A model generated the notes under the pieces. That model was not told the DNA's origin. It worked only from the letters and a program-made list of their open reading frames with translations, and made no database searches. The position numbers and the translations under genes are program-made. From positions 49,467-113,466 of the forward strand of contig JAFXHJ010000002.1 of the NCBI GenBank assembly GCA_017536445.1: DNA of 64,000 nucleotides, read 5' to 3'. The number at the start of each line of letters is the position of its first letter. Within the stretch, counting starts at the first letter, position 1. This DNA is from Clostridia bacterium. Its GTDB lineage: Bacteria > Bacillota > Clostridia > TANB77 > CAG-465. This document shows, in pieces, positions 7,892 to 27,982 of this stretch.

Positions 7892-8155
7892 GTATTAGAT
7901 AAATACTATAATGGTAAATTAGATGAAAAGACTATAGAGATATTAAATAAACAACAAAACAAATAACACATTATTTGTGTATAAAATCCATGCTAATAGT
8001 GTTGGCAAAATAAAATGTATGAGTAAAGAGAGCAGAGATGCTCGCTTTTTATAACATCATAACAAAATACGACAAAAGTCTTCAAAAATTTGGTAATTCA
8101 ATTGAGAAATTATGTGTTTTATGATATAAAATACATAAATAAACGGAGGTTACAA

Positions 8156-9715
8156 ATGAATAATAAAAATATGAAAGAAAGAGAAGAACTACACAAGGCA
8201 ATATGGGCTATTGCAGATGATTTAAGAGGTTCTGTAGATGGATGGGATTTCAAACAATATATACTAGGTATAATGTTTTATAGATATATATCAGAAAATA
8301 TAACAAATTACATAAATGAAGGCGAAAGAAAAGCAGGAGATAAAGATTTTGATTATGCAAAATTATCAGATGCTGAAGCTGAAACAGTAAGAGAAGATTT
8401 GGTAAAGGTAAAAGGCTTCTTTATATTACCTTCAGAACTATTTTGCAATGTATGTAAAAGAGCAAAAAGTGATGAAAACTTAAATGAAACACTAGAAAAC
8501 ATATTTAGCAATATAGAAAATTCTGCAAAAGGAGCAGAGAGCGAAGATGACTTTGCAGGATTATTTGCGGATTTAGATGTAAACAGCAATAAATTAGGTG
8601 CATCTGTACCTAAAAGAAATGCTAAATTAGTGAAGATACTAGAAGGTATAGCAAATATAAAACTGGGTAATTATCAAGACAACTCAATAGATGCATTTGG
8701 AGATGCTTACGAATTCTTAATGGGTATGTATGCATCAAATGCAGGAAAATCTGGTGGAGAATTCTATACACCACAAGAAGTAAGTGAACTATTAACAAAA
8801 CTTGCTGTACTTGGAAAAACACAAGTAAACAAAGTATACGACCCAGCTTGTGGATCTGGTTCATTGCTATTAAAAGCAGCTAAAATACTAGGTAAAGAAA
8901 ATGTAAGAAATGGCTTCTTTGGCCAAGAAATAAACCTAACAACATATAACCTATGTAGAATAAATATGTTCTTACATGATATAGACTATGATAAATTTGA
9001 TATAGCTTGTGAAGACACATTGGTATCACCACAACATTGGGATGATGAACCGTTTGAAGTAATAGTTTCAAATCCACCATACTCAATAAAATGGGCAGGA
9101 GACGATAACACAGTATTAATAAACGACCCTAGATATTCACCAGCAGGAGTACTAGCGCCAAAATCTAAAGCAGACTTTGCATTCATAATGCATTCATTAG
9201 CTTGGCTTGCAACAAATGGAACAGCGTCAATAGTATGTTTCCCGGGAATATTATATAGAGGTGGCGCAGAACAAAAAATTAGAAAATATTTAATAGACAA
9301 TAATTTTGTAGATGCAATTATACAATTACCAGATAATTTATTCTACGGAACATCAATAGCAACTTGTATTATGGTTCTAAAGAAGAACAAAAAAGATAAT
9401 AGCACATTATTCATAGATGCAACTAATGAATGTGTTAAAGTAACAAACAATAATAAACTTACGGACGAAAATATAGATAATATAGTAAATATATTTGCAA
9501 AAAGAGAAGATATAGAATATGTTGCAAAGCTTGTATCAAACAAAGAAATAGAAGAAAATGAATATAACTTATCTGTATCAACATATGTAGAAAAAGAAGA
9601 TACAAGAGAAAAAATAGACATAGTTAAGCTTAATAAAGAAATAGAAGAAATAGTTGCAAGAGAACAAGTACTTCGTGATGAAATAAATAAAATAATAGCA
9701 GAAATAGAGGTGTAA
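8156..9715 (+). CDS. hsdM: type I restriction-modification system, M subunit (N6-adenine DNA methyltransferase)
   Basis: N-terminal HsdM_N region, SAM motif DPACGSGSLLL, catalytic NPPYS motif. Start at ATG 8156 with RBS acggagg; the ORF-track 8090 start lacks an RBS. Confidence 0.92.
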   Translation: MNNKNMKEREELHKAIWAIADDLRGSVDGWDFKQYILGIMFYRYISENITNYINEGERKAGDKDFDYAKLSDAEAETVREDLVKVKGFFILPSELFCNVCKRAKSDENLNETLENIFSNIENSAKGAESEDDFAGLFADLDVNSNKLGASVPKRNAKLVKILEGIANIKLGNYQDNSIDAFGDAYEFLMGMYASNAGKSGGEFYTPQEVSELLTKLAVLGKTQVNKVYDPACGSGSLLLKAAKILGKENVRNGFFGQEINLTTYNLCRINMFLHDIDYDKFDIACEDTLVSPQHWDDEPFEVIVSNPPYSIKWAGDDNTVLINDPRYSPAGVLAPKSKADFAFIMHSLAWLATNGTASIVCFPGILYRGGAEQKIRKYLIDNNFVDAIIQLPDNLFYGTSIATCIMVLKKNKKDNSTLFIDATNECVKVTNNNKLTDENIDNIVNIFAKREDIEYVAKLVSNKEIEENEYNLSVSTYVEKEDTREKIDIVKLNKEIEEIVAREQVLRDEINKIIAEIEV

Positions 9716-9716
9716 T

Positions 9717-10400
9717 ATGAAGGAAAAAGGTGGATATATATACATATTAACAAATCCTTCTTTCAAAGAATATGTAAAGATAGGATATGCAGATGATGTA
9801 GAACAAAGACTAAAACAACTAAATAGAAGTGAATGTATTCCTTTTGCTTTCAGAATATATGCTGTTTATGAAGTAGATTCTAGATTATCAGATATAAAAA
9901 TACATTCAATTATAGATAAATTAAACCCAAATCTAAGATCAATAGATACATTTGAAGGAAAAGAAAGAAAAAGAGAATTCTATGCTATGACACCAGAAGA
10001 TGCATATAGCATTTTAGAGGCGATAGCCGAAATAAATGGTAGAAAAGACAAACTAAAATTAGTTGCACCAACTAAATACGAAAAACACGAAGAAGAAATG
10101 GCAGATGATGTAAAGCAAGAGAATATGGAAAGACTAATACCATTTAACTTTAATATGGTAAATATTAAACCTGGAGAAGAATTAGAATTTGTAAATAATG
10201 CAAGCCCTAATAATGGTGTGACTTGTATAGTTGTAAACGATAAACAGGTTGAGTATAATGGAGAGAAATGGTCGTTATCTGCACTAGCAACTAAACTTTC
10301 TGATGCAAAATGGGGAGTTGCTGGACCACGTTACTTCAAACACAAAGGTGAATGGCTAAACAGTATAAGAAAAAGACTGGAGGGCACAGATAGTGAGTAA
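9717..10400 (+). CDS. GIY-YIG (T5orf172-type) nuclease domain protein with C-terminal DUF4357-like domain, inserted between hsdM and hsdS
   Basis: N-terminal 'GGYIYILTN...YVKIGYA' GIY-YIG signature. 2-nt gap after hsdM. 8-nt overlap with hsdS. Confidence 0.65.
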   Translation: MKEKGGYIYILTNPSFKEYVKIGYADDVEQRLKQLNRSECIPFAFRIYAVYEVDSRLSDIKIHSIIDKLNPNLRSIDTFEGKERKREFYAMTPEDAYSILEAIAEINGRKDKLKLVAPTKYEKHEEEMADDVKQENMERLIPFNFNMVNIKPGEELEFVNNASPNNGVTCIVVNDKQVEYNGEKWSLSALATKLSDAKWGVAGPRYFKHKGEWLNSIRKRLEGTDSE

Positions 10401-11673
10401 ATTAGAACAGTTAATTCAAGAATTATGCCCTGATGGTGTGGAATATAAAAAGTTCAATGAAGTGGCAGAATACATTAGAGGAGTGTCATACAACAAATCT
10501 AAGGAAATTAATAATGGGAAAGAAGGTCACAAACTTTTAAGAGCTAATAATATAACATTGTTATCTAATGAATTAAATTATGATGAAGTTAAAATTATTG
10601 ATTTTTCTGTCAACGTAAAACCAAATCAAATGCTATTAAAAAATGATATTTTAATATGTGCAGGAAGTGGAAGCAAAGAGCATATTGGAAAAGTTGCGTT
10701 TATAGAGAAGAATATAAATTACACATTTGGAGGATTTATGGGGGTAATAAGAATAAAACACAATATAATGAATCCAAGATATATGTTTCACATAATGACT
10801 AGTCCTATATTTAAGGCTCATCTTAGTAAGGTATCGAATAGTAGTACCATAAATAATATAAACAATGATACTTGGAAAGAATTCTATTTTCCTGTACCTC
10901 CGTTGGAGGTACAATGTGAAATTGTCCGTATTTTGGACCATTTCACATTACTTACAGCAGAGCTTACAGCAGAGCTTACAGCAGAGCTTACAGCAAGAAA
11001 GAATCAATATGATTATTATATGGATGCGTGTTTTAAGAGTATTAAATCGACGGTAAAGGTAAAGATGTCAGATGTGTTAATTTCATTAAAAACAGGTTTG
11101 AATCCTAGAAAGTTTTTTCAGTTAAACACAGATGATGCACAAGGATACTATGTTACAGTTAGAGAACTAGGAGATAGACAAGTAAAATATTGGCAATCAA
11201 AAGATAAAGTAAATCAAGTTGGCTTAAATAGAATAAATGAACGCTCTAATTTAGAAATTAATGATGTTTTGTTTAGTGGTACTGGAACAATCGGTAGGGT
11301 ATCATTAATTGAAGAGAAACCAAATAATTGGAACGTAAAGGAAGGGGTATACATACTAAAACCAGATACTAAAGTAATAAATCCTGTGTTTTTAATGTAT
11401 TTGATGAAATCAAATTATATGAGAAATATATATTCTAATTATATAGTTGGTTCACCAGTAGCAAGTGTGCCGATGAAAGATTTAAAAGAACTAGAATTTG
11501 ATTTGCCATCAATTGAAGAACAAGAAAAAATAGTAGCGATATTAGATAGATTTGATAAATTATGTAATGACATTTCAGAAGGCTTACCTGCAGAAATAGA
11601 AGCAAGACAAAAACAATATGAATATTATAGAGAGAAGTTATTGTCTTTTAAAGAGGTAAAAAAATATGAATGA
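10393..11673 (+). CDS. hsdS: type I restriction-modification system, S (specificity) subunit with central (TAEL)3 repeat
   Basis: Two TRD-like halves separated by a central conserved region containing LTAELTAELTAELTA. C-terminal conserved helix (DRFDKLCNDISEGLPAEIEARQKQYEYYREKLL). GTG start overlapping the upstream stop. Confidence 0.88.
   Translation: MSKLEQLIQELCPDGVEYKKFNEVAEYIRGVSYNKSKEINNGKEGHKLLRANNITLLSNELNYDEVKIIDFSVNVKPNQMLLKNDILICAGSGSKEHIGKVAFIEKNINYTFGGFMGVIRIKHNIMNPRYMFHIMTSPIFKAHLSKVSNSSTINNINNDTWKEFYFPVPPLEVQCEIVRILDHFTLLTAELTAELTAELTARKNQYDYYMDACFKSIKSTVKVKMSDVLISLKTGLNPRKFFQLNTDDAQGYYVTVRELGDRQVKYWQSKDKVNQVGLNRINERSNLEINDVLFSGTGTIGRVSLIEEKPNNWNVKEGVYILKPDTKVINPVFLMYLMKSNYMRNIYSNYIVGSPVASVPMKDLKELEFDLPSIEEQEKIVAILDRFDKLCNDISEGLPAEIEARQKQYEYYREKLLSFKEVKKYE
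10951..10995 (+). repeat. 12-bp tandem repeat cttacagcagag x3.7 encoding (TAEL)n in hsdS central conserved region
   Basis: Direct reading: three perfect 12-mers plus one partial unit, in frame. Confidence 0.9.
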
Positions 11674-12733
11674 TGTGTATGATACAATAGAAACAGTTGC
11701 TGAAGGAATTAAAACAAATTTAATAAACAAAGAAGATAAAAAATCAATAACATTGTTATATGCTTTTAGTTCTACAGGGAAGACAAGAATATCTAGAATA
11801 TTATCTGATGAAGAAAATAATGATAACATTTGTTTCAATTCTTTCATTACAGACTTATTTGTTTGGGATAATGAAAATTTTGTAATTAATATTCCAAAAG
11901 ATTGCTGGATTGTTAAATTTATAAATGAACAAGGAATTGAAAATCAGATAAAGGATAATTTTAGAGAACTTGTAACTTCAAAAGTAGAGCCAAGGTTTGA
12001 ATTAAATGAAGGCAAAATCAAGTTTGATATACCAACTGGTGATAATAACGTAGAGACAGGAATAAAAATTTCAAAAGGAGAAGAAAGTTTATTTATTTGG
12101 AGTGTATTTTACACAATTTTAACCATTGTAATAGAAGAACTGAATATGAGTAAAGATAACCGAAGTACAGACGTTTTTAATAATTTACAATACGTTATTA
12201 TAGATGATCCGATTTCTTCAATAGATGATTCGAAAATTGTAACTATGGCACTGCAATTAATAGAAGCTATAAACAGTAGTAAAAGCAATTTGAAATTCTT
12301 TATTACAACACATCTGGCGTTATTTTATAATGTAATATACTCTAATTATAGAAAATCAAAAGATTTTAATTCTATTGTTTTAACAAAAAAAGATAATCAA
12401 TTCTATTTAACTAATCAATCAAAAGATACACCGTTTGGTTATCATTTAACTCTTAAACAAGAAATTGAACGAGCAATAGAAAACGATGATATAAGAAAAT
12501 ATCATTATAATTTGTTTAGAAATTTAATCGAAAAGACAAGTAATTTCTTGGGGTATAAAGAGTGGACAAACTGTATTGCTGGAAATCGAAAAACAGAATT
12601 TATAAAGAAAATAAATTTATATAGCCATAGCAGATTAATAGATTGGGAATATAAACAATTACCAGAGGAAGATAAGGAACTATTTAAAGAAGTATATAAT
12701 AGCTTTAAAAAAGAGTATAAATGGGAGGAATAA
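11666..12733 (+). CDS. P-loop ATPase-like protein at the PrrC position of the type I R-M operon (possible anticodon-nuclease/abortive-infection-like)
   Basis: Walker A-like 'AFSSTGKT', Walker B-like 'VIIDDPISSIDD'. Sits between hsdS and hsdR, overlapping hsdS by 8 nt. Anticodon-nuclease identity is not demonstrated. Confidence 0.4.
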   Translation: MNDVYDTIETVAEGIKTNLINKEDKKSITLLYAFSSTGKTRISRILSDEENNDNICFNSFITDLFVWDNENFVINIPKDCWIVKFINEQGIENQIKDNFRELVTSKVEPRFELNEGKIKFDIPTGDNNVETGIKISKGEESLFIWSVFYTILTIVIEELNMSKDNRSTDVFNNLQYVIIDDPISSIDDSKIVTMALQLIEAINSSKSNLKFFITTHLALFYNVIYSNYRKSKDFNSIVLTKKDNQFYLTNQSKDTPFGYHLTLKQEIERAIENDDIRKYHYNLFRNLIEKTSNFLGYKEWTNCIAGNRKTEFIKKINLYSHSRLIDWEYKQLPEEDKELFKEVYNSFKKEYKWEE

Positions 12734-12741
12734 TATTTAAT

Positions 12742-15700
12742 ATGAATAAATATAATGTAGTAATGGAAATGAGTAATTCTACAGTTGCAGCAGAATATGA
12801 ACCCTTAAAGAAGCGCTCTGAGGCATATCAATCTGAAGCCGCTTTAGAGGAAGAATTCATAAGAATGCTTACTGAACAGGGATATGAACGTTTGATGATT
12901 CATAATTCAGAAGCGTTAGTAGATAATTTGCGTAAACAATTAGAATTACTTAATGATTACAAATTTACAGATTCAGAATGGGCTAGATTTTTTAATAATA
13001 ACATTGCTAATAACAATGATGGCATTGTAGAGAAAACTAGAAAAATACAAGAAGATTACATTCAAGTTCTAAAAAGAGATGATGGGACAAGCAAAAATAT
13101 CTATCTATTAGATAAGAAGAATATTCATAACAATAGACTACAAGTTATTAATCAATATGTAGAAAATGAAGGTAATTATAATAATAGATATGATGTAACT
13201 GTTCTTGTTAATGGCCTACCTTTAGTACATATAGAATTAAAAAGAAGAGGAGTTGCTTTAAAGGAAGCGTTTAATCAAATAAACAGATACCAAAGGGATA
13301 GCTTTTGGGCTGGAAGTGGACTATATGAATATGTACAAATATTTGTAATATCTAATGGAACTACTACAAAGTATTATTCTAATACTACCAGAGAAAGTCA
13401 CATTAAAGAAAAAGCAGCTGGCAGAAACAAAAGTAAAAAGACAAGTAATAGTTTTGAGTTTACTTCATATTGGGCTGATGCAAATAACAAAGTAATACCA
13501 GATTTAGTAGACTTTACAAGAACATTCTTTTCCAAACATACATTGTTAAATATATTAACTAAGTATTGTGTGTTTACTTCAGAAGATTTGTTACTTGTAA
13601 TGAGACCTTATCAAATAGTTGCAACAGAAAGAATATTAAATAGAATAGAAGTTGCAAAGAATTACAAAAAAATGGGAACTATAGAAGCTGGTGGATACAT
13701 TTGGCATACAACTGGTTCTGGAAAAACTCTAACATCTTTCAAAACAGCACAGCTTGCAACAAATTTAGAATATATAGACAAAGTATTATTTGTTGTAGAT
13801 AGAAAAGACTTAGACTATCAAACAATGAAAGAATACGACAAGTTTGAAAAAGGCGCTGCTAATGGAAATAGAAGTACTAAAGTATTACAAAGACAATTAG
13901 AAGATAGCACATCTAGAATAATAGTTACAACTATTCAAAAATTAAGTGAATTTGTAAAGAGAAACAAAACTCATCCAGTATATCAAAAACATATGGTATT
14001 AATATTTGATGAATGTCATCGTTCACAATTTGGTGATATGCATAAGATGATAGTAAAAAGCTTTAAGAAATACCATTTGTTTGGGTTTACAGGAACACCT
14101 ATATTTGCTAAAAATGCATTTAACAAATCTAATCCGGACTTCTGTACGACAGAGCAAGCTTTTGGAGATAAACTACATACATATACAATAGTTGATGCTA
14201 TAAATGATGGAAATGTACTTCCATTTAGAATAGACTATGTAAATACAGTAAAATCTAAAGAAGGAATGAAGGATAAGCAAGTAACTGCAATTAATACAGA
14301 AGAAGCATTAGCTTCTCATGAAAGAGTTAGCAAAGTAGTAGAATATATAATTGAACATTTTGACCAAAAGACAAAAAGAAATGCTTTTTATGACTTAAAA
14401 GGACAAAGATTAAATGGATTTAACTCAATATTTGCAGTTAGTTCAATACCAATGGCTAAAAAGTATTATGCAGAGTTTAAGAAACAACTAGAGGAAGCTA
14501 ATAAAGATTTAACCATTGCAACGATATATTCTTTTGCAGCAAACGAAGAAGACAATTTAGATGGAATATTAGACGATGAAGGTTTTGAAACAGAGTTATT
14601 AGATCAAAGTTCTAGAGAATTCCTAGATTTTGCGATTGATGAATACAATAAGAAGTTCAAAACAAATTTCTCATCAGAAGGAAATGGATTCCAAGATTAT
14701 TATAAAGATTTATCTGATAGAGTAAAGAAAAGAGAAATAGATTTACTTATAGTTGTAAATATGTTCTTAACAGGATTTGATGCAACAACATTAAATACAT
14801 TGTGGGTAGATAAGAACTTAAAACAACACGGATTAATACAAGCATTTTCAAGAACTAATAGAATATTAAATTCAGTTAAATCTTATGGAAATATAGTTTG
14901 TTTTAGAGATTTACAAGAACAAACTAATGATGCAATAGCACTATTTGGAGATAAAGATGCAAGTGGTATTGTATTATTAAAATCTTATGAAGATTACTAC
15001 TATGGATACGAGGATGAAAAAGGTAAGAAACAAAAAGGATATGAAGAAAGAATAGCTGAACTTATTCAAAAATATCCTTTGGGTGAACCAATAATAGGTG
15101 AGCAAAACGAAAAAGACTTTATTGTATCTATGGGTAATATTTTAAGATTAAGAAATATATTATCTTCGTTTGACAAGTTTGAAGGAAATGAAATACTTTC
15201 ACCAAGAGATTTACAAGACTATATAGGAACATATACAGACCTATATGAAAAGTATAAACCAGACCCAACAGATAGCGAAAGCATTAAAGATGATATTGTA
15301 TTTGAAATGGAACTTGTAAAACAAGTAGAAGTAAACATAGATTATATTTTAATGCTTGTTGCTAAATATCATAAATCAAATTGTAAAGATAAAGAAATAC
15401 TTGGTTCTATCGATAAAGCTATTAAGTCAAGCTTAGCGTTACGTTCTAAGAAAGAGTTAATAGAATTGTTTATTGAAAGAATAAATACTGTAGCGGATGT
15501 GTTTAAGGATTGGACTAAATTTGTAAAAGAACAAAAAGAAATAGACTTGAAAGCATTAGTTGAAGAAGAAAACTTAAACGAAGATGAAACTAGAAGATTC
15601 TTAAATAATTCATTCAGAGATGGACAAGTTAAAACAACTGGAACAGATATAGAAAAGATATTACCACCAATGAGATGGTTTGGCGGTGGGAATAGAGCAG

Positions 15701-15864
15701 CAAGAAAACAAACTATAATACAAAAAGTGTCTAAGTTCTTTGAAAAATATTTTGGAATAGTAAATGTCGAAGAAGAAAAAGAAGATTTGTATGAAGTGTG
15801 CGAAGATAGCGAACCATATGAGGTGCTTATGGTTGCGGAAGATACGGAAAACGAGTATAAATAA
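12742..15864 (+). CDS. hsdR: type I restriction enzyme R subunit (DEAD/DEAH helicase-nuclease)
   Basis: Helicase motifs HTTGSGKT (Walker A) and FDECHRSQ (DEAH box), ~1040 aa. Start at ATG 12742 with RBS gggagga. Confidence 0.92.
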   Translation: MNKYNVVMEMSNSTVAAEYEPLKKRSEAYQSEAALEEEFIRMLTEQGYERLMIHNSEALVDNLRKQLELLNDYKFTDSEWARFFNNNIANNNDGIVEKTRKIQEDYIQVLKRDDGTSKNIYLLDKKNIHNNRLQVINQYVENEGNYNNRYDVTVLVNGLPLVHIELKRRGVALKEAFNQINRYQRDSFWAGSGLYEYVQIFVISNGTTTKYYSNTTRESHIKEKAAGRNKSKKTSNSFEFTSYWADANNKVIPDLVDFTRTFFSKHTLLNILTKYCVFTSEDLLLVMRPYQIVATERILNRIEVAKNYKKMGTIEAGGYIWHTTGSGKTLTSFKTAQLATNLEYIDKVLFVVDRKDLDYQTMKEYDKFEKGAANGNRSTKVLQRQLEDSTSRIIVTTIQKLSEFVKRNKTHPVYQKHMVLIFDECHRSQFGDMHKMIVKSFKKYHLFGFTGTPIFAKNAFNKSNPDFCTTEQAFGDKLHTYTIVDAINDGNVLPFRIDYVNTVKSKEGMKDKQVTAINTEEALASHERVSKVVEYIIEHFDQKTKRNAFYDLKGQRLNGFNSIFAVSSIPMAKKYYAEFKKQLEEANKDLTIATIYSFAANEEDNLDGILDDEGFETELLDQSSREFLDFAIDEYNKKFKTNFSSEGNGFQDYYKDLSDRVKKREIDLLIVVNMFLTGFDATTLNTLWVDKNLKQHGLIQAFSRTNRILNSVKSYGNIVCFRDLQEQTNDAIALFGDKDASGIVLLKSYEDYYYGYEDEKGKKQKGYEERIAELIQKYPLGEPIIGEQNEKDFIVSMGNILRLRNILSSFDKFEGNEILSPRDLQDYIGTYTDLYEKYKPDPTDSESIKDDIVFEMELVKQVEVNIDYILMLVAKYHKSNCKDKEILGSIDKAIKSSLALRSKKELIELFIERINTVADVFKDWTKFVKEQKEIDLKALVEEENLNEDETRRFLNNSFRDGQVKTTGTDIEKILPPMRWFGGGNRAARKQTIIQKVSKFFEKYFGIVNVEEEKEDLYEVCEDSEPYEVLMVAEDTENEYK

Positions 15865-15875
15865 CAAATGAAAAA

Positions 15876-15914
15876 ACAGAATAACATGCAATATAGCAAT
15901 GTTATTTTGTTTTT
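15876..15914 (+). terminator. terminator after hsdR
   Basis: acagaataacat/atgttattttgt stem (1 mismatch) followed by TTTT. Confidence 0.5.
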
Positions 15915-15983
15915 AACAAACAAATGGTAAAAAATACAATACTTGTAAAAGAATGCTATTCGGTAATAGAAAGGAAGATTAAA

Positions 15984-16379
15984 ATGTTAGAATATATTTA
16001 TCCAATAATTACGGCTGCAATAAGCGGCATGGTAACATATTTAGTTGCTAGAAATGGAAATAAAAAAGATATCGAAGTAGTGAAAATACAAAACAAGGCA
16101 GAGATAGATAGGTTGGTAAATCAACATGCTATAGATATTGAATCTATGAAAGAAAAACATAAATTAGAATTAGAGTCAAAAGAAAAGGAGCATCAATATA
16201 AATTAGAGTTGATAAAAGCAGAGAGTGAAAACGAAATAACAAAGCAAAATGCTATATCGGGAAATGAAGCAGTTAACAATTTGGTGGTAGGACTTATGGG
16301 AAGTATCTTTGGAAGTGAGGCAGCTCAAAAGGAAATTGAGAAAGGAATAAAAGAAGCATTTAAGAATAAGGAGCAATAG
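15984..16379 (+). CDS. small membrane protein with coiled-coil tail (hypothetical)
   Basis: RBS aaggaag. One N-terminal TM (YIYPIITAAISGMVTYLV) followed by charged helical repeats (KEKHKLELESKEKEHQYKLELIK). Confidence 0.55.
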   Translation: MLEYIYPIITAAISGMVTYLVARNGNKKDIEVVKIQNKAEIDRLVNQHAIDIESMKEKHKLELESKEKEHQYKLELIKAESENEITKQNAISGNEAVNNLVVGLMGSIFGSEAAQKEIEKGIKEAFKNKEQ

Positions 16380-16380
16380 A

Positions 16381-17022
16381 ATGTTAAGAGAATTTGAAAA
16401 TATTTATATAGAAACATATTCCGCCTGGGAAAAATATAGGAAAGCAATTATATATAGAGTTTTGGCAGCGGTTATAGTAAGTTTAATAATATCATTTTTA
16501 AATTTTTGGGTGGGAGAACTAATTTTTTATCTATCCATTTTAACATTAATAGTTTTTGGAATATATGCTAGACGAAATGATTTTCAAGATGTAAAAAAAC
16601 AAAGTGCTAAAAAGGAGTTTAAGAATTATGATTACAAAAGAGCAAAGTTTGAGCAAATGAAAGATAAAATAGCTTTGTTATTAAAACAAAAGAATATGTA
16701 TAATAAAGAAAGCTTGGAAGTTATCATACATTCTTTTGAAGGTGAGATGACTAAATACGATAAGGTTTCCACAACAGCATCAATATTATCAATAATATTA
16801 GCAGTAATTGGTCTCAAACAAAAGTTGGCAACGATTGTTATTCTTATATTTGCTGCAGCTGGTACGGGATTGCTTATATCGTTCGTTGTTGAATGGATAT
16901 TAAAATACATATTGGTTAACAAGGTAAAATATAATGAACTTGTTAATGCTTTAGTAGAAATAGAATTGGAAGTTATAAATTCAAAAAAGAAAAAGAATTA
17001 TAACAGTATAAATAAAGAATAA
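16381..17022 (+). CDS. multi-TM membrane protein (hypothetical)
   Basis: Four predicted hydrophobic helices. 1-nt gap after the previous gene. Confidence 0.55.
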   Translation: MLREFENIYIETYSAWEKYRKAIIYRVLAAVIVSLIISFLNFWVGELIFYLSILTLIVFGIYARRNDFQDVKKQSAKKEFKNYDYKRAKFEQMKDKIALLLKQKNMYNKESLEVIIHSFEGEMTKYDKVSTTASILSIILAVIGLKQKLATIVILIFAAAGTGLLISFVVEWILKYILVNKVKYNELVNALVEIELEVINSKKKKNYNSINKE

Positions 17023-17044
17023 AATGTATACGAGGGGATAAATT

Positions 17045-18346
17045 ATGAAATTTGATTTGGAACAAAAAATATACAACAAAAAAACAAAAGAATATTTCAA
17101 GGAGGTAGAAAGTTCGTTCTATGATGGAAATTATCGTTCGGCTACAGTAATGTTATATTCAGTGACAATAGCAGACATATTATATAAGCTAGAAGAATTA
17201 AGAGATGTATATGATGACAAAAAAGCAAAAAACATATTAAAATCAATAGAGATTCAAAGAAATGAAAATAGAATAAGTTCTGATTGGGAACAAGATTTGT
17301 TGAAACAGGTTAGGGAAGATACAGAAATAATAGAGGATATCACTTGGGCGAATCTAGAATATCTTAAAAAACTAAGGAATTTTTCTGCGCATCCCGCTTT
17401 TAATAGAAATAACGAATTAATTGCACCAACACGTGAAACTATAGCAGGACTAATAGAAGATATGTTAAATCAAATATTAATAAGACCGCCATTATTTGCA
17501 GATAAAATTATCGACTTAATAACCGAAGATATTGCGGAAAAAAGCGGAATTTTCACAGGAGATTACGATAAATTTGAACACTATATAAAAAATAAATATT
17601 TGATAAAAATGGGAACAGGTATGAAGACTCAAACGTTAAAAGCTTTTTGGAAATTTGTCTTTAAGCTAGAAAATGATGACTGTAATGAGAATAGAGAAAT
17701 TAACTATGAATTTATAAAAGTGCTTATTAAAAACGATAAATTGGTACACATTACTGAAATAAAAAATGATAAGCAATATTATAATCAAATAAGTGGAAAT
17801 ATAGAAATTCAAGAATATTTAATAAATCTTATTTACGAAATACCAGAAATATATGAATTTATAGAATATACTACAAGGACAGCTTTAGAATTAACATATA
17901 AACAAAAACCTTATCTAAATACAATTTCTTATTATAAATATCCAAATGTAGAAGAATTTTTGAAAAGTATAAAAGGTAATCAACTAACACGAAGAAAGTA
18001 TATAAGATTATTGGAAAGATATGTGAAGCAAGAAAACAAAGAAAAGGAGCTATATGATAAATATATAACAATATTTGCAGAGAGCGAAACATTTGATAAG
18101 GCTGATCACTTATTTACATATTTAATAGATAATAATTTAGAAAACTTTTCTGAAGAGCAAATAATTCGATTAATAGAGGTTGCTAATGGAAACAATCAAA
18201 TATATAATAGAAATAGAGCAAAGCATGATAATAATATTATTATTGAAAAATGTGCATATCGTTTAGGGATTGATTTTGACTATACAAAATATGAAAACTT
18301 CGAATATTCCGAAGAATTACTTGCTAAAGTATTATTTCCATTTTAA
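17045..18346 (+). CDS. HEPN-like (Rx4HP motif) Abi-family protein, candidate abortive-infection RNase
   Basis: 'KKLRNFSAHPAFN' contains the R-x4-H HEPN catalytic signature in a predicted helical context. 433 aa, alpha-rich. RBS gaggggataaattATG. Confidence 0.45.
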   Translation: MKFDLEQKIYNKKTKEYFKEVESSFYDGNYRSATVMLYSVTIADILYKLEELRDVYDDKKAKNILKSIEIQRNENRISSDWEQDLLKQVREDTEIIEDITWANLEYLKKLRNFSAHPAFNRNNELIAPTRETIAGLIEDMLNQILIRPPLFADKIIDLITEDIAEKSGIFTGDYDKFEHYIKNKYLIKMGTGMKTQTLKAFWKFVFKLENDDCNENREINYEFIKVLIKNDKLVHITEIKNDKQYYNQISGNIEIQEYLINLIYEIPEIYEFIEYTTRTALELTYKQKPYLNTISYYKYPNVEEFLKSIKGNQLTRRKYIRLLERYVKQENKEKELYDKYITIFAESETFDKADHLFTYLIDNNLENFSEEQIIRLIEVANGNNQIYNRNRAKHDNNIIIEKCAYRLGIDFDYTKYENFEYSEELLAKVLFPF

Positions 18347-18375: not shown

Positions 18376-19257
18376 ATGAATAAATCAAAAGTATACTATA
18401 CAAAAGAAATAATACCATCTAGTTTGGTGGAAATGTATAAAGCAGTAGGTAAAGAACTTACCGGAAAAGTAGCAGTTAAAGTACATTCTGGAGAAAAAGG
18501 TAATCAAAATTATTTAAGACCAGAATTTCTAAAAGAATTAGTAGATTATGTAGGTGGTACTATTGTAGAATGTAACACTGCATATAATGGTGAGAGAAAT
18601 ACTACAGATAAACATACTAAGTTAATGGAAGACCATGGTTGGAGTAAATGTTTTAATGTAGATATATTAGATAGTGAAGGTCCAGATTTAGAGATAGATA
18701 TTCCTAATGGTACTGTTATTAACAAAAACTATTTAGGTAAGAATATTAAAAACTATGATTCTATGTTAGTTGTATCTCATTTCAAAGGACATCCTATGGG
18801 TGGATATGGTGGGGCATTAAAACAACTATCTATTGGTTTAGCATCTGCATCAGGCAAAGCTTGGATTCATTCTGCTGGTGTTACAAAAGATGTTAATCTT
18901 GTATGGAAAAATACAGCACCACAAGACAAGTTTTTAGAAGCAATGGCAGAGAGTGCTTCTTCTGTAGTAGAATACTTTAAAGGTAACATTGTATATATTA
19001 ACATTATGTGTAATATGTCTGTAGATTGTGATTGTTGTGCAGTAGCAGAAGATCCTTGTATGAAAGATATAGGTGTGCTAGCAGCTACTGACCCAGTAGC
19101 TATAGACCAAGCCTCAATAGACTTAGTAAAGGAGGCTAAAGATATAGGGAAGGAATATTTATTAGAAAGAATTAATTCTAGACATGGTACTCATACTATA
19201 GATGTTGCAGATAAACTTGGCTTTGGTTCTAAGGAATATAATTTAATAGAGATATAG
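18376..19257 (+). CDS. DUF362 domain protein (Cys-rich, likely Fe-S binding)
   Basis: 'MNKSKVYYTKEI...' N-terminus typical of DUF362. C-terminal Cys cluster CNMSVDCDCCAVAEDPC. Start at ATG 18376 with RBS aaggagg. Confidence 0.6.
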   Translation: MNKSKVYYTKEIIPSSLVEMYKAVGKELTGKVAVKVHSGEKGNQNYLRPEFLKELVDYVGGTIVECNTAYNGERNTTDKHTKLMEDHGWSKCFNVDILDSEGPDLEIDIPNGTVINKNYLGKNIKNYDSMLVVSHFKGHPMGGYGGALKQLSIGLASASGKAWIHSAGVTKDVNLVWKNTAPQDKFLEAMAESASSVVEYFKGNIVYINIMCNMSVDCDCCAVAEDPCMKDIGVLAATDPVAIDQASIDLVKEAKDIGKEYLLERINSRHGTHTIDVADKLGFGSKEYNLIEI

Positions 19258-19260
19258 ATA

Positions 19261-19298
19261 AAAGAGATATATTTAGTTTGCACTAAATATATCTCTTT
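19261..19298 (+). terminator. terminator after DUF362 gene
   Basis: 15-bp perfect stem aaagagatatattta/taaatatatctcttt. Confidence 0.55.
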
Positions 19299-19393
19299 TA
19301 GTGTTTGCAAATTTTTTGAAAATGTCGAAATAAGTCTAAAAACATTGTAAAAAATGTAAAATATGGTATAATAATTCCAATGGAGTAGTAGAT

Positions 19394-19957
19394 ATGAAGA
19401 AGAAAATAAAGAACAAAGTAAGGAATGAAACAAAAAAGGAATTGGCAAGAAAAGATTTGAATAAGAATTTGGATTTAATATTAGATATAATGAAGAATGG
19501 GTATAATCAACATTATGAGAGAACACAAAGTTTGGATAGTAAAAGTGGATTCTTTGTAGCGTTTCATGCAGCGCTAATAGCATTTGTTTTAGATTTCGAA
19601 ACGATAAATAAAATGATTCATAATGATATTGAAAGTATGCCACAAATTGTCATAACAGTAGCGGCTACAATAATATTTGTGTTGCTATTATTAGTAGCTA
19701 TTGCCGCTATTGTAACATTTATGTGTAGTTTGATTTCAAGAAATATCAAATATATTCCAGAAGCAATATGCGCGGAAGTATATTACAATAGTGACAATAT
19801 AGATTTTAAGAAAAGACTATTAGAAGGCTATAAGGATATAGCAAGAAACAATGAAGAAGTATTGAAGAAAAAACATAGATCATTTAATTTAGGCGTTGCT
19901 TTAACTATTGCGGAAATTGTGCTGTGGTGCATTAGCATAATATTTAAATTGTTTTAA
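19394..19957 (+). CDS. membrane protein (hypothetical), Lys-rich N-terminus
   Basis: Two or three TM helices. RBS aatggag. Confidence 0.5.
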   Translation: MKKKIKNKVRNETKKELARKDLNKNLDLILDIMKNGYNQHYERTQSLDSKSGFFVAFHAALIAFVLDFETINKMIHNDIESMPQIVITVAATIIFVLLLLVAIAAIVTFMCSLISRNIKYIPEAICAEVYYNSDNIDFKKRLLEGYKDIARNNEEVLKKKHRSFNLGVALTIAEIVLWCISIIFKLF

Positions 19958-20814: not shown

Positions 20815-21177
20815 TTGGATACAATAGGTAAATATATAAGAGGTCAAAACCTATTAAGGATAAAACGCATAGTAGATGCGGATATAAACGGAGATAAATT
20901 TATTATACGAAGGAGAAAAAAGAATGTAGAGTTTATGAGAGAATATTCTTTAACAGATGAAGATGTTAAGAATATAGTAAGATCCCTTACTGTTAAAGAC
21001 TGTTTTAAAGGACCAGAGAAAGATAGAGATGAAGAATATGAGGGTTTTCTCTTTTTCTTTTGTCCGATGTTTGAAGGAATAAAATTATATATTAAGATTA
21101 GAATAGAAAGTGATGAGAAGTCGGTTTGTTTATCAGTGCATGAATTTGGTAAATATGATGAGGTGGGAGAAGTATGA
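20815..21177 (+). CDS. MqsR-family toxin (predicted mRNA interferase)
   Basis: Aligns by eye with E. coli MqsR along its length (LTVKDCFKGPE vs LSESDFYKSM; KLYIKIRIESDE...SVHEF vs QVYLKITVIHDVLIVSFKE). TTG start with RBS aaggatg. 4-nt overlap with the next gene. Confidence 0.6.
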   Translation: MDTIGKYIRGQNLLRIKRIVDADINGDKFIIRRRKKNVEFMREYSLTDEDVKNIVRSLTVKDCFKGPEKDRDEEYEGFLFFFCPMFEGIKLYIKIRIESDEKSVCLSVHEFGKYDEVGEV

Positions 21178-22187
21178 AAGTGTATTGTCCATATTGTAGA
21201 GAAGAAAAAGAATATATTATTGAAACAAGAGAAGTAAAAGAATTTAGAGGAAAAGAAATAGATACATATGAAAACGTAGCGATGTGTAAAACATGTAAGA
21301 ACGATTTGTATGTAAATGAATTAGAAACTGAAAATAGTAAAAGAATATATGAAGCATATAGACAAACTGAAAATATCATAAAACCACAAGATATAATAGA
21401 TTTGAGAAGCAAATATGATATATCACAAAGAGAATTAACTGCTATACTAGGATTTGGCAAAATGACAATAAATAGATACGAAAGAGGAGGAGTACCAACT
21501 AAATCTCAAAGTGATTATATTAAACTTTTAATAGAAAATGAATCTAAATTTATTGAGAAAGTAAAAGAAGCGTATAGTAAAAATAATATAACTAAAAAAA
21601 CATATGAAAAGATAATGTCTAAAGAAAATTATGAAGAATGTAATACTAATAATTTGCAAAATTTAATAAGAAAATGTATAACAAACAATCTATCTAGAAC
21701 GCCAGATATATATAATGGTTATAAGCTATTAGATTTAGATAAATTAGAAAATATTATTTCGTATATAGCAAGTCAAGTTAAAAATTTAACTGTTACAAGC
21801 ATTAATAAATATTTATGGTATATAGATATGTTATCTTTTAAAGAACAATGTGTTGCTGTAACAGGCCTAACATATGAGCATGAAAAGTTTGGCCCTACAA
21901 TAGATGGGAAAAACTATAATACGTTAATGATTCTAAACAACAAGTATGTTAAAGAAGAAACTGAAAATGATTATGGCACAACAACACAAATAGTAAGTAA
22001 AAAGAATTATGATCTTAATTGCTTATCTGATGATGAACTTGAAATTATAAACAAAGTAATTAAATTATTAAAAAACAAAAAAGTAACTGACATATCTGCA
22101 ATGTCCCATTTAGAAGATGGATGGAAAAAGACGAAAAGATATGAAAAGATTTCGTTTGAGTACGCAATGAATTTAAGCATAGATTAA
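21174..22187 (+). CDS. MqsA-like antitoxin (Zn-ribbon + XRE HTH) fused to C-terminal Panacea (DUF4065)-like domain
   Basis: N-terminal CPYC...CKTC zinc ribbon. HTH 'ISQRELTAILGFGKMTINRYERGGVPTKSQSDYIKLL' parallels MqsA 'LSQKEASEIFGGGVNAFSRYEKG...STIKLL'. C-terminal ~200 aa carries a DUF4065-like pattern (INKYLWYIDMLSF...GLTYEHEKFGPT). Confidence 0.6.
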   Translation: MKVYCPYCREEKEYIIETREVKEFRGKEIDTYENVAMCKTCKNDLYVNELETENSKRIYEAYRQTENIIKPQDIIDLRSKYDISQRELTAILGFGKMTINRYERGGVPTKSQSDYIKLLIENESKFIEKVKEAYSKNNITKKTYEKIMSKENYEECNTNNLQNLIRKCITNNLSRTPDIYNGYKLLDLDKLENIISYIASQVKNLTVTSINKYLWYIDMLSFKEQCVAVTGLTYEHEKFGPTIDGKNYNTLMILNNKYVKEETENDYGTTTQIVSKKNYDLNCLSDDELEIINKVIKLLKNKKVTDISAMSHLEDGWKKTKRYEKISFEYAMNLSID

Positions 22188-23628: not shown

Positions 23629-24081
23629 ATGGATAAAATATTTAGCTTTATAGTAAACAGAAAAACAAATAAACTATTACTTCTTTTAGGAAGTCCAGAA
23701 GATCCACAATTCCATAAATCTTTTTGGTATGTAGTAACAGGTGGTAAGGAAGATACAGATACAAATCTAGAACAAGCGGTAGTAAGAGAAATAAAAGAAG
23801 AAACAAATTTAGATGCAGTAGAAACACTTTATCTAAAATGGATATTTAAATACAAATCACTTGGAAACATTTGCACAGAATATGTCTATGTTTCATTTAT
23901 AGGCGAGGATAGTAACATCGTATTAAATGAAGAAAGCATAGATTACAAATGGTGCGATGTAGATGAATTTATAGAACTTATAGAATGGTCAGATGACAAA
24001 GAGTTCTTAAGAGAAGTTGTAAAAGCAGCATTAAACAAAGAAGTATACATTAAAGAAGAAAAAGTAGACCAATACTTTTAA
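23629..24081 (+). CDS. NUDIX hydrolase
   Basis: Nudix box GGKEDTDTNLEQAVVREIKEETNL. Confidence 0.75.
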   Translation: MDKIFSFIVNRKTNKLLLLLGSPEDPQFHKSFWYVVTGGKEDTDTNLEQAVVREIKEETNLDAVETLYLKWIFKYKSLGNICTEYVYVSFIGEDSNIVLNEESIDYKWCDVDEFIELIEWSDDKEFLREVVKAALNKEVYIKEEKVDQYF

Positions 24082-24183
24082 TATAACAAAGATATAAATA
24101 TAACAAAGTAAAAGAAGAAGGAGCACACAGTAGTGTACTCCTTCTATTTATTTTTTGTATATTGGTATTTGCAAAGCATAGCG

Positions 24184-24906
24184 TTACTTCTTAATCAAGA
24201 AATAAAACTGCGTGTGCCTCACATCGTTAACCGGAGCAGCCGAAACATCGATGAGTTCATAGCTGTATCCGAGAGTTGTAAGAATGGTTGCAATCTCGTT
24301 GATAGAGAAAAGCCTAATCTTGTGGTAATCCATATATTCGAAGTCTTCGCCGGTAAGCTTGTTATGAACCTCAAACTTAGGCTCCCATACAGAGTAAACT
24401 TCATCCACTCTGTTGGATACCCAGGATTCCCTTACGATAATACTATCGTTTTCATAGGTCTTATCCTTGACATAGCCATCAATCCACTTGTCTATGCAGT
24501 ATCTTACATCGAAGATAACATAGTCATTCGCATGCTCCAAGAGGTTCTTGATTGAACGCTCGAGATCTTCAAGGGTAAGATTATACTGCAGTGCACTTCC
24601 AAGACAAGAGACAACGCTGAACTTTCTGTCAAGTGCAAAGTCGCTCATATCTCCGTGCATAAAGTTGATGTGTGGATTTTTTGCTCTGGCAATATCAAGC
24701 ATGCCTTTAGAGTAGTCCAAACCAAAGATGTTGTAGCTCTCAGGTGAGAAAAAGTGAATGTGTTCACCAGTTCCACAGCCAACATCCAAAAGGGACTTAT
24801 CTTTAGACTTGTCTGTAAGAAGCTTTAAGAGTTCGTATTCCCGGTCATAGGGAATGCCGGCGTTTATAAGGTCGTAGATTTCAGCAAGCTGTTCATACAT
24901 AATCAT
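24184..24906 (-). CDS. class I SAM-dependent methyltransferase
   Basis: Motif I 'LLDVGCGTGEH'. Confidence 0.75.
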   Translation of the reverse strand: MIMYEQLAEIYDLINAGIPYDREYELLKLLTDKSKDKSLLDVGCGTGEHIHFFSPESYNIFGLDYSKGMLDIARAKNPHINFMHGDMSDFALDRKFSVVSCLGSALQYNLTLEDLERSIKNLLEHANDYVIFDVRYCIDKWIDGYVKDKTYENDSIIVRESWVSNRVDEVYSVWEPKFEVHNKLTGEDFEYMDYHKIRLFSINEIATILTTLGYSYELIDVSAAPVNDVRHTQFYFLIKK

Positions 24907-24907
24907 C

Positions 24908-25480
24908 TTACTTTTCCTCCTTTATTTTGTTAATGCATTCTAAAAGAGTTTCAGCGCTGTTAAAATACATCACAGTCACATCGGATTCGAGCTCGGCGTT
25001 AAGATGAGAGCTTACAACTCTTTCATCAATAAGGACGTAAACCGTCTTATGACTCCAAAGCCTATGAACCTTGGTATGGGCAATCTCGGTGAATACACCG
25101 GCAGAGAGACCAAGGCAAAGCATAACATCAAAGTTCTTGTTTGGCTGAGTGTTCATCTCTGCCCAACCACCGTTAATTTCTACTGCTTCATCGCAGAAAG
25201 AAAGATTGCCAGTAATTGTAGGTGTATTTCCGTACTTGGGATAAAATCCCTTAATCTTGGTAGTTCTATCAGGAATAGAGTGAAGTGCTTTGGCAACGTC
25301 CAAAGGAACTCCGATATCCGGAAGTACACCGATAGCTTCAAAGTGAGTGTTTAAGAATCGTGCTATGCTATCGATATACTTAGGATAATCAGCTTCGGTG
25401 ATGTGACCAAACGTGTAAAGGTTCTTAATGCCATTGTTGCTAGGCCCGGCAATAAAGGCCGTAAGTTTAGTGTTGTTCAT
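24908..25480 (-). CDS. LOG/SLOG-like Rossmann-fold protein (hypothetical)
   Basis: 'LTAFIAGPSNNG' N-terminal strand and 'CLGLSAGVFTEI' resembling the LOG 'PGGxGTxEE' motif. Start set at MNNTKL (25480) with RBS ggagatg. Confidence 0.4.
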   Translation of the reverse strand: MNNTKLTAFIAGPSNNGIKNLYTFGHITEADYPKYIDSIARFLNTHFEAIGVLPDIGVPLDVAKALHSIPDRTTKIKGFYPKYGNTPTITGNLSFCDEAVEINGGWAEMNTQPNKNFDVMLCLGLSAGVFTEIAHTKVHRLWSHKTVYVLIDERVVSSHLNAELESDVTVMYFNSAETLLECINKIKEEK

Positions 25481-26552: not shown

Positions 26553-26578
26553 AATAATCCTCCTTCTCTTAATAGAGA

Positions 26579-27043
26579 TTAGAAGTAAAATTGCCTATTG
26601 ATTTCGTATGCAATCGCGGCTGTTACAACCGGAAGGGTCAGGAAATCTACCGAGGTATTCATAGGCAGTTTTACCAGGTCATCAAGCAGAGACTGCTTGT
26701 AGGTGGTTAAGCCAGATGACTCGTTGCCAAAGACGATGACAATATTTCCTTCCGAGCAATCAAGCTCATAGAAAGACTTGGTTGCAGCACCAGAGGTACC
26801 AACAAGGATGTTGCCTTCAGCACGAAGTGTGTTAACAGCTTCTTCGAAGGTCTCGAAATGAGTAACCTTGGGGTAGGACGTGATGTTCCAAGAACGAATC
26901 TTGTCTACGATTTTCTTGTTATCGAAGGGAATGGAATTTCCCGCAGTGTAGATCTCACAGTCAAGGGCCGATGCAATCTGGATTACGTGTGCGATGTCAT
27001 AAGGCGACCGAATGGCGTCATAGAGTAACTTAATCTTTTTCAT
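26579..27043 (-). CDS. SPOUT (SpoU/TrmH/TrmL-like) RNA 2'-O-methyltransferase family protein
   Basis: ~150 aa with SPOUT knot motif 'IVIVFGNESSGL'. Confidence 0.7.
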   Translation of the reverse strand: MKKIKLLYDAIRSPYDIAHVIQIASALDCEIYTAGNSIPFDNKKIVDKIRSWNITSYPKVTHFETFEEAVNTLRAEGNILVGTSGAATKSFYELDCSEGNIVIVFGNESSGLTTYKQSLLDDLVKLPMNTSVDFLTLPVVTAAIAYEINRQFYF

Positions 27044-27057
27044 AATGCTATATCTCC

Positions 27058-27981: not shown

Positions 27982-27982
27982 A

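Follow-up and report, generated by a model that had tools for sequence, protein, structure and literature searches.

A clostridial homologue of the anticodon nuclease DARNA/PD-T7-3 beside two apparently unrelated membrane-protein genes in a defence island

Independently inherited elements standing side by side, namely a nuclease of the known DARNA type and two unrelated membrane genes, very probably make up the region that follows a type I restriction-modification (R-M) operon in the 64,000-nucleotide stretch of DNA analysed here (the window), and we therefore do not read it as one three-gene system. This reading is favoured because none of 63 DARNA loci contains either membrane gene and because sister strains separate the genes from one another. 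The region encodes, all on the forward strand, TM1 (15984..16379; 131 aa), in which an N-terminal hydrophobic segment is followed by a K/E-rich coiled coil, TM2 (16381..17022; 213 aa), with four transmembrane (TM) segments and a predicted cytoplasmic helical insert of ~70 aa, and a protein of 433 aa (17045..18346, including the stop codon). The three open reading frames of the original prediction are all present, and the location in a defence island that it proposed was borne out by Pfam and PADLOC.

The product of 17045..18346 is, by sequence homology over nearly its full length, a clostridial homologue of DARNA, which is the same protein as PD-T7-3 and as 'Dandelion' in PDB entry 9wxf. The original prediction could assign the combination of genes to no named system; the 433-aa protein does belong to one. 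The PADLOC profile PDLC04108 (PD-T7-3) matches with E 8.2e-122, residues 6-420 falling on profile positions 10-429 of 432, and 9wxf matches the same residues collinearly with E 1.1e-62 and 34% identity. The two domains are recovered separately as well. The HEPN-only construct 9wx2 ('Dandelion-hepn') matches query residues 6-151 with E 2e-32, and the HEPN RNase domain (17045..17497; aa 1-151) is 41% identical to that of E. coli DARNA, which supports the predicted assignment to the HEPN RNases of the abortive-infection type. The C-terminal helical-repeat domain (17498..18346), the putative counterpart of the ssDNA-sensing domain in E. coli DARNA, is matched by 9wwz over residues 152-420 with E 2e-24. 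An all-alpha protein carrying an R-x4-H motif had been described, and indeed the AF2 model is all-alpha (pLDDT 89.4) and the motif reads R111-N-F-S-A-H116 (17375..17392) within the HEPN domain. A Foldseek search of this model against the PDB gave no significant match, and the HEPN fold therefore rests on sequence homology to a solved protein. The proposed check for Abi and HEPN families in Pfam brought no confirmation, since Pfam and NCBIfam returned DUF4145 alone and below threshold (13.2 bits against a cut-off of 23.1, E 0.09, residues 91-121); the identity was settled by the PADLOC and PDB searches. A literature search pairing 'Dandelion' with HEPN yielded nothing relevant.

Residue numbers in 9wxf equal DARNA numbers plus 5, and all 15 named residues agree with this offset. 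R111, N112 and H116 are invariant in 27/27 homologues, and R111 and H116 align to the catalytic R117 and H122 of E. coli DARNA. Six of the seven ssDNA-contact residues are kept, F350, D354, N384, Q385, Y387 and N390 corresponding to E. coli F368, D372, N402, Q403, Y405 and N408; among the homologues Q385 is invariant, and F/Y350 and D354 are conserved. At the seventh pocket position E. coli DARNA has W406 and the window protein N388, and none of the 27 homologues has a tryptophan there. Three of the four RNA-surface residues also differ from E. coli DARNA, with K69, R98 and K201 not conserved, and the oligomer-interface residues N33 and E347 are replaced by D27 and Q329. The W406A mutant of E. 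coli DARNA is inactive and W406 is essential there (bioRxiv 10.64898/2026.02.22.705581), and the replacement of this residue together with the changed RNA surface suggests that trigger or substrate details may differ in the clostridial protein.

PD-T7-3 was described as an anti-phage protein of E. coli (Vassallo et al., 2022; PMC9519451), and HEPN was already assigned to it (PMC10952713). DARNA of E. coli cleaves tRNA anticodons as a stand-alone HEPN nuclease and is switched on by ssDNA presented by phage SSB; it forms a homododecamer and is active by itself in vivo and in vitro (bioRxiv 10.64898/2026.02.22.705581). By homology, the protein in the window would act as a self-sufficient abortive-infection protein. 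Its HEPN domains would dimerise to form R-x4-H active sites inside a large assembly of identical subunits, twelve in E. coli, and the C-terminal helical domain would sense ssDNA with 'CT' motifs that becomes exposed once phage SSB displaces host SSB. Once activated, the protein would cut host tRNAs in their anticodon loops, and translation would be arrested. While activity, trigger and oligomeric state are what we infer by homology, the homology itself, the invariant catalytic motif, the mostly conserved ssDNA pocket and the lack of a conserved partner gene are directly supported.

This last point comes from the neighbourhoods of DARNA genes in other genomes. No homologue of TM1 or TM2 was detected by tblastn near DARNA at any of the 63 genomic loci, the upstream neighbours across these loci are heterogeneous, and no neighbour is conserved, so that the DARNA homologue, judged from its genomic context, appears to have no obligatory partner gene. 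A pair of 4-TM and 1-TM proteins upstream of DARNA at one locus (L051) was considered as diverged TM2 and TM1 and was rejected as unrelated. The nearest relatives (63% identity) adjoin type II R-M genes, at another locus (L008) a 70%-identical hsdR lies ~65 nt upstream of the DARNA homologue, and further homologues are embedded in type III (res-DARNA-mod) and type I R-M loci. PD-T7-3 was said not to occur in defence islands (PMC10799925); unlike this picture, homologues outside E. coli often lie inside or abut R-M operons of type III, type I (hsdR) or type II, a linkage that parallels that of PrrC. A true PrrC homologue is encoded at 11666..12733, inside the hsd operon of the window (PADLOC), and two unrelated families of tRNA anticodon nucleases, the PrrC and DARNA homologues, thus flank one hsdR in this island.

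In this lineage the three genes are probably co-transcribed, together with a fourth, between two strong terminators. The hsdM-S57-hsdS-prrC-hsdR operon ends in an intrinsic terminator (15872..15914, forward strand), whose presence before TM1 had been predicted and was upheld by RNA folding (hairpin with U-run, dG -17.7 kcal/mol, z -6.3, with 0/200 shuffles folding equally well); a consensus scan had overlooked it because its stem is A/T-rich. A promoter-like site, TTAACA-16-TACAAT at 15913..15940, follows on the same strand and is weak, since it matches 10/12 consensus positions in a scan whose total of hits equals chance expectation in this A/T-rich DNA. The start of TM1 at 15984 is favoured over a longer ORF from 15924, as AAAGGAAG precedes 15984 by 8 nt and 15924 has no RBS in front of it; the length of 131 aa is backed by homologues of ~131 aa and by independent gene calls on sister contigs. 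The predicted gap of 1 nt between the membrane genes holds, 22 nt separate TM2 from the DARNA gene, and a strong RBS precedes each downstream gene. The fourth gene (18376..19257, forward strand; 293 aa from an RBS-preceded ATG, a length also called on sister contigs) encodes a DUF362 protein (Pfam E 3e-48), a match to which was found in none of the 63 DARNA loci, so it is not a conserved DARNA partner. The unit is closed by a terminator hairpin (19259..19300, forward strand; dG -25.9 kcal/mol, z -6.75 by RNA fold), and apart from the one promoter-like site behind the hsdR terminator no such signal and no terminator was detected within it. The TM1-TM2-DARNA arrangement was found on at least seven contigs, and tight packing, recurrence and shared transcription together make a functional coupling specific to this lineage possible on comparative data alone. 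The earlier view of the three genes as a unit therefore stands for transcription in this lineage and fails for co-location elsewhere; a shared transcript ties the expression of TM1, TM2, DARNA and DUF362 together, not their mechanism.

Two sister contigs mark the points at which homology breaks. One of them (L066) is 97% identical to the window from 17033 onward, and its DARNA protein shares 97.7% aa identity. Upstream, it carries PDC-S06 and a TM2 homologue (51%), from which DARNA is separated by a gene of 367 aa, and it has no TM1. The other (L070) is 93.5% identical to the window through hsdR until homology stops at 15914 (blastn), at the hsdR terminator; past this breakpoint it carries PDC-S06 and a TM2 homologue (52%), and neither DARNA nor TM1. 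In both, the TM2 homologue lies 164-179 nt after PDC-S06, and both alleles are present in one sample (ERZ28653715). Since DNA homology breaks at 15914 and at 17033, TM1 and TM2 (15915..17032) appear to occupy a variable slot for cassettes, bounded by the type I R-M/PrrC operon on one side and by the DARNA block on the other. What the window has in common with L066 begins only 12 nt ahead of the ATG of DARNA, so that DARNA would lack a conserved promoter in this setting and would rely on transcription from upstream.

The two small genes in this slot are both real, as their dN/dS values document. TM2 (dN/dS 0.22-0.33) has the four TM segments originally proposed, with Kyte-Doolittle 19-residue means of 2.06-2.49 against a cut-off of 1.6. 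It belongs to a very rare family, with two non-self clusters among 5.8e9 proteins and seven representatives among 1.84e9 in an exhaustive HMMER search; the wider alignment is too divergent for use as a scan query. Pfam, PADLOC and NCBIfam gave no match with E <= 1 above noise, PHROG gave none either, a PDB profile search returned noise, no copy was found in IMG/VR, and the AF2 model (pLDDT 67) had no structural match. TM effectors of the Pycsar/CBASS type (PycTM, 2TM, S-4TM) were considered and dropped, as neither a profile nor a structural match to that model supports them. From its contexts, TM2 is to be regarded as cargo behind TM1 in the window and behind PDC-S06 elsewhere; our best guess is that it may act at the membrane as an effector or exclusion protein independently of DARNA.

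TM1 is far more widespread, with homologues in ~30 clusters, and selection on it is strong (dN/dS ~0.10 over 155 pairs, with dS saturated). Its description as a 1-TM coiled-coil protein was sound for the K/E-rich coiled coil; the TM segment is borderline, as the hydrophobic stretch (residues ~4-22) has a Kyte-Doolittle mean of 1.55 (hand sum), below the cut-off of 1.6, and a single-TM topology is plausible. TM1 matches the phage protein family phrog_2542 (E 1.6e-15), and despite this match tblastn found none in GenBank phages or IMG/VR. A PDB profile search gave noise, and a PADLOC hit to PDC-S30 (E 7e-4 over 40 residues) was disregarded as weak. In ~40 loci of gut Clostridia the next gene starts between -41 and +13 nt from the TM1 stop, and at least nine types of cargo occupy this position, mostly defence genes such as ResIII helicase, PHP-ATPase, type II CBASS, Thoeris and OLD. 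Where loci with unlike cargo are compared, DNA homology stops within ~30 nt of the TM1 stop and resumes at a conserved right-flank gene, C1. Two loci (L092 and L081) share only TM1 and ~70-125 nt of upstream DNA, and TM1 thus seems to move as a unit rather than as a fixed chromosomal flank; its neighbours vary on both sides. None of the flank genes of other TM1 contexts (C1, the HTH gene C6, AbiL) was found in the window. These comparisons define TM1 as a putative conserved family of small membrane/coiled-coil 'leader ORFs', whose 3' end appears to be the cassette-exchange junction before many defence cargos. We found no published description of such a family.

How TM1 and TM2 relate to each other can be read in several ways. 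They may form a separate two-gene cassette for membrane-acting defence or superinfection exclusion, in which TM1 is needed by TM2 and which merely lies upstream of DARNA. In favour of this are the gap of 1 nt, which suggests translational coupling, the purifying selection on both genes, the match of TM1 to a phage family, and the defence genes, such as PDC-S06, that otherwise occupy the slot. However, the two occur together in this lineage only, the TM2 homologues on both sister contigs follow PDC-S06 without TM1, TM1 homologues carry other cargo, and neither protein matches a known effector family, so that we regard such a cassette as possible, if doubtful. A deletion linking the two genes was also considered, in which the C7 cargo found behind TM1 would be the PDC-S06 that precedes TM2; blastp gave no match between them.

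TM1 could instead be a homology arm or hotspot flank gene that is retained by cargo-swapping recombination and has no protein partner, with TM2 a hitch-hiker without a defence role. Breakpoints at the 3' end of TM1, the return of homology at C1 and the varying neighbours would fit this. It is unlikely nevertheless, as a low dN/dS with saturated dS points to long-term selection on the TM1 protein itself, TM1 travels as a unit with its short upstream segment, and the C1 flank is absent from the window. Just as tentative is the proposal that TM1 is a functional universal leader for swappable defence cassettes of gut Clostridia, translationally coupled to its cargo and needed for its expression, membrane localisation or infection sensing, with the 3' end doubling as the exchange junction. 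The reading originally put forward, in which TM1, TM2 and the HEPN protein are the three components of one abortive-infection system and the membrane proteins serve the RNase as sensor, anchor or second effector, has operon-like packing between common terminators, a stable arrangement on at least seven contigs and the defence-island location in its favour, and it is very improbable given the 63 DARNA loci devoid of both membrane genes, an E. coli DARNA that works alone, L066 with DARNA but no TM1 and a further gene separating DARNA from the TM2 homologue, L070 with a TM2 homologue but no DARNA, and TM1 preceding at least nine unrelated cargos, each gene thus having different partners elsewhere.

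Taken as a juxtaposition of independent elements, the region resembles known systems in its parts. E. coli DARNA/PD-T7-3 shares the two-domain architecture, the R-N-x3-H motif and the lack of a conserved partner gene with the protein studied here, which differs in coming from a low-GC gut Clostridia MAG, in carrying asparagine for W406, in the non-conserved K69, R98 and K201, and in its setting, where it follows a type I R-M/PrrC operon and is predicted to be co-transcribed with unrelated genes. PrrC/EcoprrI is likewise a tRNA anticodon nuclease linked to R-M genes. The N-domain of PrrC is an ABC-ATPase (AAA_13), and the protein is held in check by EcoprrI until the phage Stp peptide triggers it, whereas the DARNA family lacks an ATPase and senses ssDNA, and the two share no sequence relation. 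BxaP (ORF376) is PD-T7-3-like as well and lies inside or beside another defence system, as an insertion in type 3 BREX loci (PMC10799925); it is a distant homologue recognised by structure only and is linked to BREX, whereas the protein in the window is a clear sequence homologue linked to R-M. Defence loci on mobile elements are discussed by Vassallo et al. (2022; PMC9519451). Like P2/P4 prophage-type hotspots, TM1 loci hold variable defence cargo between conserved anchors, in many loci TM1 on the left and C1 on the right, with alternative alleles coexisting in one community; in contrast to these hotspots, they are bounded on the left by a small membrane/coiled-coil ORF that runs up to or into the start codon of its cargo and shifts between upstream contexts.

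The HEPN gene is thus a divergent representative, from a Firmicute, of a defence family already described in structure and mechanism, and the notion of a new three-gene system falls away. The TM1 leader pattern looks like the sole new part. If TM1 were indeed a universal leader, TM1-TM2(-DARNA) would be one case of a new modular organising principle of defence islands. The TM1 leader ORF, which marks a recombination junction with exchangeable defence cargo, could in any case be used as bait for new defence genes of gut Clostridia, with candidates such as TM2, the L066 gene of 367 aa and cargos C4 and C7.

The 433-aa protein encoded at 17045..18346 (+) is a new, divergent member of the known DARNA (PD-T7-3) kind. 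The PADLOC model for PD-T7-3 covers it end to end (E 8e-122), the 12-chain PDB entry 9wxf, named 'Dandelion', matches residues 6-420 (E 1e-62), and matches were also obtained with the HEPN-only construct 9wx2 (E 2e-32) and the C-terminal construct 9wwz (E 2e-24). As 15/15 residues named in the DARNA preprint agree with 9wxf at an offset of +5, this entry is the E. coli PD-T7-3/DARNA protein. The window protein is 34% identical to it overall, and its HEPN domain (41%) is closer than its C-domain (30%). Pfam yielded solely a sub-threshold DUF4145 match located at the R-x4-H motif. The motif itself was found as R111-NFSA-H116 in a protein predicted to be all-alpha (pLDDT 89.4), both as originally described, and R111, N112 and H116 are invariant in an alignment of 27 sequences. 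In this alignment the pocket residues F350 (F/Y), D354, Q385 (invariant) and Y387 are kept; the position of E. coli W406 is N388 in the window protein and is W in none of the set, and three of the four RNA-surface residues differ from E. coli DARNA. The HEPN call is thus borne out by the family homology, the 9wx2 match and the invariant R111/H116, and the view that no named system could be assigned has to be revised, since the protein falls in a named and mechanistically studied family. PD-T7-3 was recovered as a defence system of one gene (PMC9519451) and was listed in 2023 as HEPN-containing (PMC10952713). E. coli DARNA is an abortive-infection protein that forms a homododecamer, carries the catalytic residues R117 and H122 in its N-terminal HEPN domain and cuts tRNA anticodon loops (2026 preprint 10.64898/2026.02.22.705581).

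The three ORFs downstream of hsdR are present as the original prediction gave them, including the 1-nt gap between the stop of TM1 (15984..16379, +) and the start of TM2 (16381..17022, 213 aa, +), the AAGGAG RBS of which sits within the TM1 3' end; 22 nt with a GAGGGGA RBS separate TM2 from the DARNA homologue. TM1 most likely starts at 15984 (131 aa), because a AAAGGAAG RBS lies 5' of that ATG, its homologues are ~131 aa long and gene calls on sister contigs are likewise 131 aa. The same evidence disfavours the public annotation IKL68_01060 (151 aa), which starts at the ATG at 15924, where inspection of the upstream sequence revealed no RBS. The DUF362 gene directly after the DARNA homologue (18376..19257, +) probably starts at 18376 (293 aa), not 18349. 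The hsdR terminator is real, consisting of an A/T-rich hairpin and a U-run at ~15872-15914 (dG -17.7 kcal/mol, z -6.3) that a consensus scanner did not pick up, and a second strong hairpin follows DUF362 at 19259-19300 (dG -25.9, z -6.75). Because of these two hairpins, TM1-TM2-433aa-DUF362 is judged by position to be the transcription unit, and expression of the four genes would be linked in the window's lineage.

The three genes had been read as a 'membrane plus HEPN' system, which is supported neither by the neighbours of DARNA, nor by the distribution of TM2, nor by DNA comparison with sister loci. With each GTDB species represented by one genome, the scan yielded 63 DARNA loci from Clostridia, Treponema, Bacillales, Bacteroidota, Streptococcus and others, with homologues 27-63% identical; tblastn detected TM1 or TM2 in 0/63, so the two membrane genes are not co-located with the HEPN gene there. 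A 4-TM plus 1-TM pair upstream in L051, the sole such locus of the 63, was considered as an equivalent and is unrelated. Upstream neighbours are heterogeneous. An R-M gene can be recognised next to DARNA in at least 15/63 loci. Type II R-M genes adjoin the closest relatives (63% identity; L001, L064), and in L008 an hsdR 70% identical to that of the window ends ~65 nt 5' of the DARNA homologue with nothing between. One clade (L006, L009, L011, L012, L021, L026, L034; DARNA homologue at ~8000-9300 or equivalent) shows the order res-DARNA-mod with abutting or overlapping start and stop codons, the flanks being a ResIII helicase (~960-975 aa) and a type III-like methyltransferase (~610-670 aa). 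In several of these loci the DARNA start overlaps or abuts the helicase stop, and in L006 and L012 small ORFs lie between. This arrangement recalls PrrC inside EcoprrI, and we found no description of R-M embedding of DARNA homologues in the literature searched.

TM2 shows four clear hydrophobic segments, in line with its description as a 4-TM protein, and is rare: a search of 5.8e9 proteins gave no more than two non-self clusters, and one of 1.84e9 gave 7 representatives. L066-L069 have the order PDC-S06 (AAA_13, 775 aa), a 179-nt gap, TM2 homologue, 367-aa gene and DARNA, and three others (L070-L072) have hsdR, PDC-S06, TM2 homologue and then convergent genes, without DARNA. The window is 97% identical to the sister-strain locus L066 from 17033 on, 12 nt 5' of the DARNA ATG, for 5.8 kb downstream (DARNA 97.7% identical in amino acids), and is unrelated 5' of this point except for ~68% identity inside TM2. 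The hsdR of sister-strain locus L070 is 93.5% identical through 15914, at the terminator, with divergence beyond. From these homology breaks we infer that TM1-TM2 (15915..17032) fills a slot whose content varies, with a conserved block on either side, DARNA being part of the downstream one; the comparisons speak against mechanistic dependence among the three genes. Metagenome ERZ28653715 holds both slot alleles upstream of near-identical DARNA, PDC-S06 + TM2 homologue + 367-aa gene in L068 vs hsdR + TM1 + TM2 in L114, and the hotspot is therefore polymorphic inside one community. Within this lineage, 7 or more contigs show the window arrangement again. The 367-aa gene (L066 7675..8778, between TM2 homologue and DARNA) is another occupant of the same slot, and its protein has no match in Pfam, PADLOC or PHROG.

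Of the 1-TM description of TM1, an N-terminal hydrophobic segment stands, and it is borderline. TM1 belongs to a conserved family of small membrane/coiled-coil ORFs. Its homologues fall into ~30 clusters, 52-66% identical except for one at 42%, and identity averages 71% per alignment column. TM1 matches the phage family phrog_2542 (E 1.6e-15); its dN/dS of ~0.10 indicates that the protein itself is under selection. Neighbours were clustered and annotated at the ~40 loci carrying a homologue (L073-L112, at ~5000-7400 in each), and the architecture is consistent: a gap upstream, usually of 130-290 nt and often preceded by AbiLi/AbiLii and an HTH_3 regulator, or by a SLFN-like helicase, a NERD helicase, a methyltransferase or, in the window, hsdR, and the next gene immediately downstream, -41 to +13 nt from the TM1 stop. 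At least nine cargos, mostly defence, occupy this position, namely a ResIII/DEAD helicase of ~1,065 aa (11 loci), a PHP + ATPase protein of ~780 aa (9 loci plus fragments), type II CBASS with CD-NTase, Cap2, Cap3 and SUa-2TM (5 loci), Thoeris with ThsA-Macro and ThsB-TIR (3 loci), an OLD nuclease (1 locus), several uncharacterised proteins and, in the window only, TM2. In ~20 loci the slot is bounded on the right by C1, a conserved minus-strand gene of 97-110 aa; C1 and other TM1-flank genes were sought in the window and are absent. Where two loci differ in cargo, their DNA homology spans TM1, ends at most ~30 nt from its stop and returns at C1; L092 and L081 share solely TM1 and ~70-125 nt upstream, and TM1 sequence groups follow cargo only partly. 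We regard it as doubtful that defence cassettes share TM1 as a functional, universal leader; the leader-like placement of TM1 before varied cargo was not found described in the literature searched.

Two additional genes are embedded in the type I R-M operon (8090..15864). Between hsdM and hsdS lies a T5orf172/PDC-S57 gene (9717..10400), and between hsdS and hsdR a full-length PrrC homologue (11666..12733; PADLOC E 3e-95), so that two unrelated anticodon nucleases, PrrC before and DARNA after, flank one hsdR. In hsdS (10393..11673) a tandem peptide repeat LTAELTAELTAELTA lies in the HsdS central region (~10940..10990); as the number of TAEL repeats in EcoR124-type enzymes determines how long the spacer in the recognition site is, this repeat could be one that switches specificity. 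Further downstream, a 187-aa protein with three hydrophobic segments (19394..19957), preceded by its own TG-extended promoter-like site (19345-19372), weakly matches a PycTM effector (PADLOC E 1.5e-6); no cyclase gene is evident next to it. The protein is a possible orphan effector of the Pycsar type. A 120-aa ORF and a 337-aa protein gene overlapping by 4 nt (20815..22187) are likely a Panacea-type toxin-antitoxin pair, the 337-aa protein on syntenic contig L066 having MqsA_antitoxin and SocA_Panacea domains. The region 24000..29000, with GC of 0.39-0.43 vs ~0.29 elsewhere, flatter GC skew and genes mostly on the minus strand, may be compositionally distinct or foreign.

By homology, the DARNA homologue of the window would act as a stand-alone HEPN anticodon nuclease, triggered by ssDNA exposed by phage SSB and leading to translation arrest. 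TM1-TM2 would be a swappable cassette in which TM1 is both a conserved leader ORF and the recombination junction; TM2 may, at low confidence, be a putative membrane effector or exclusion factor.
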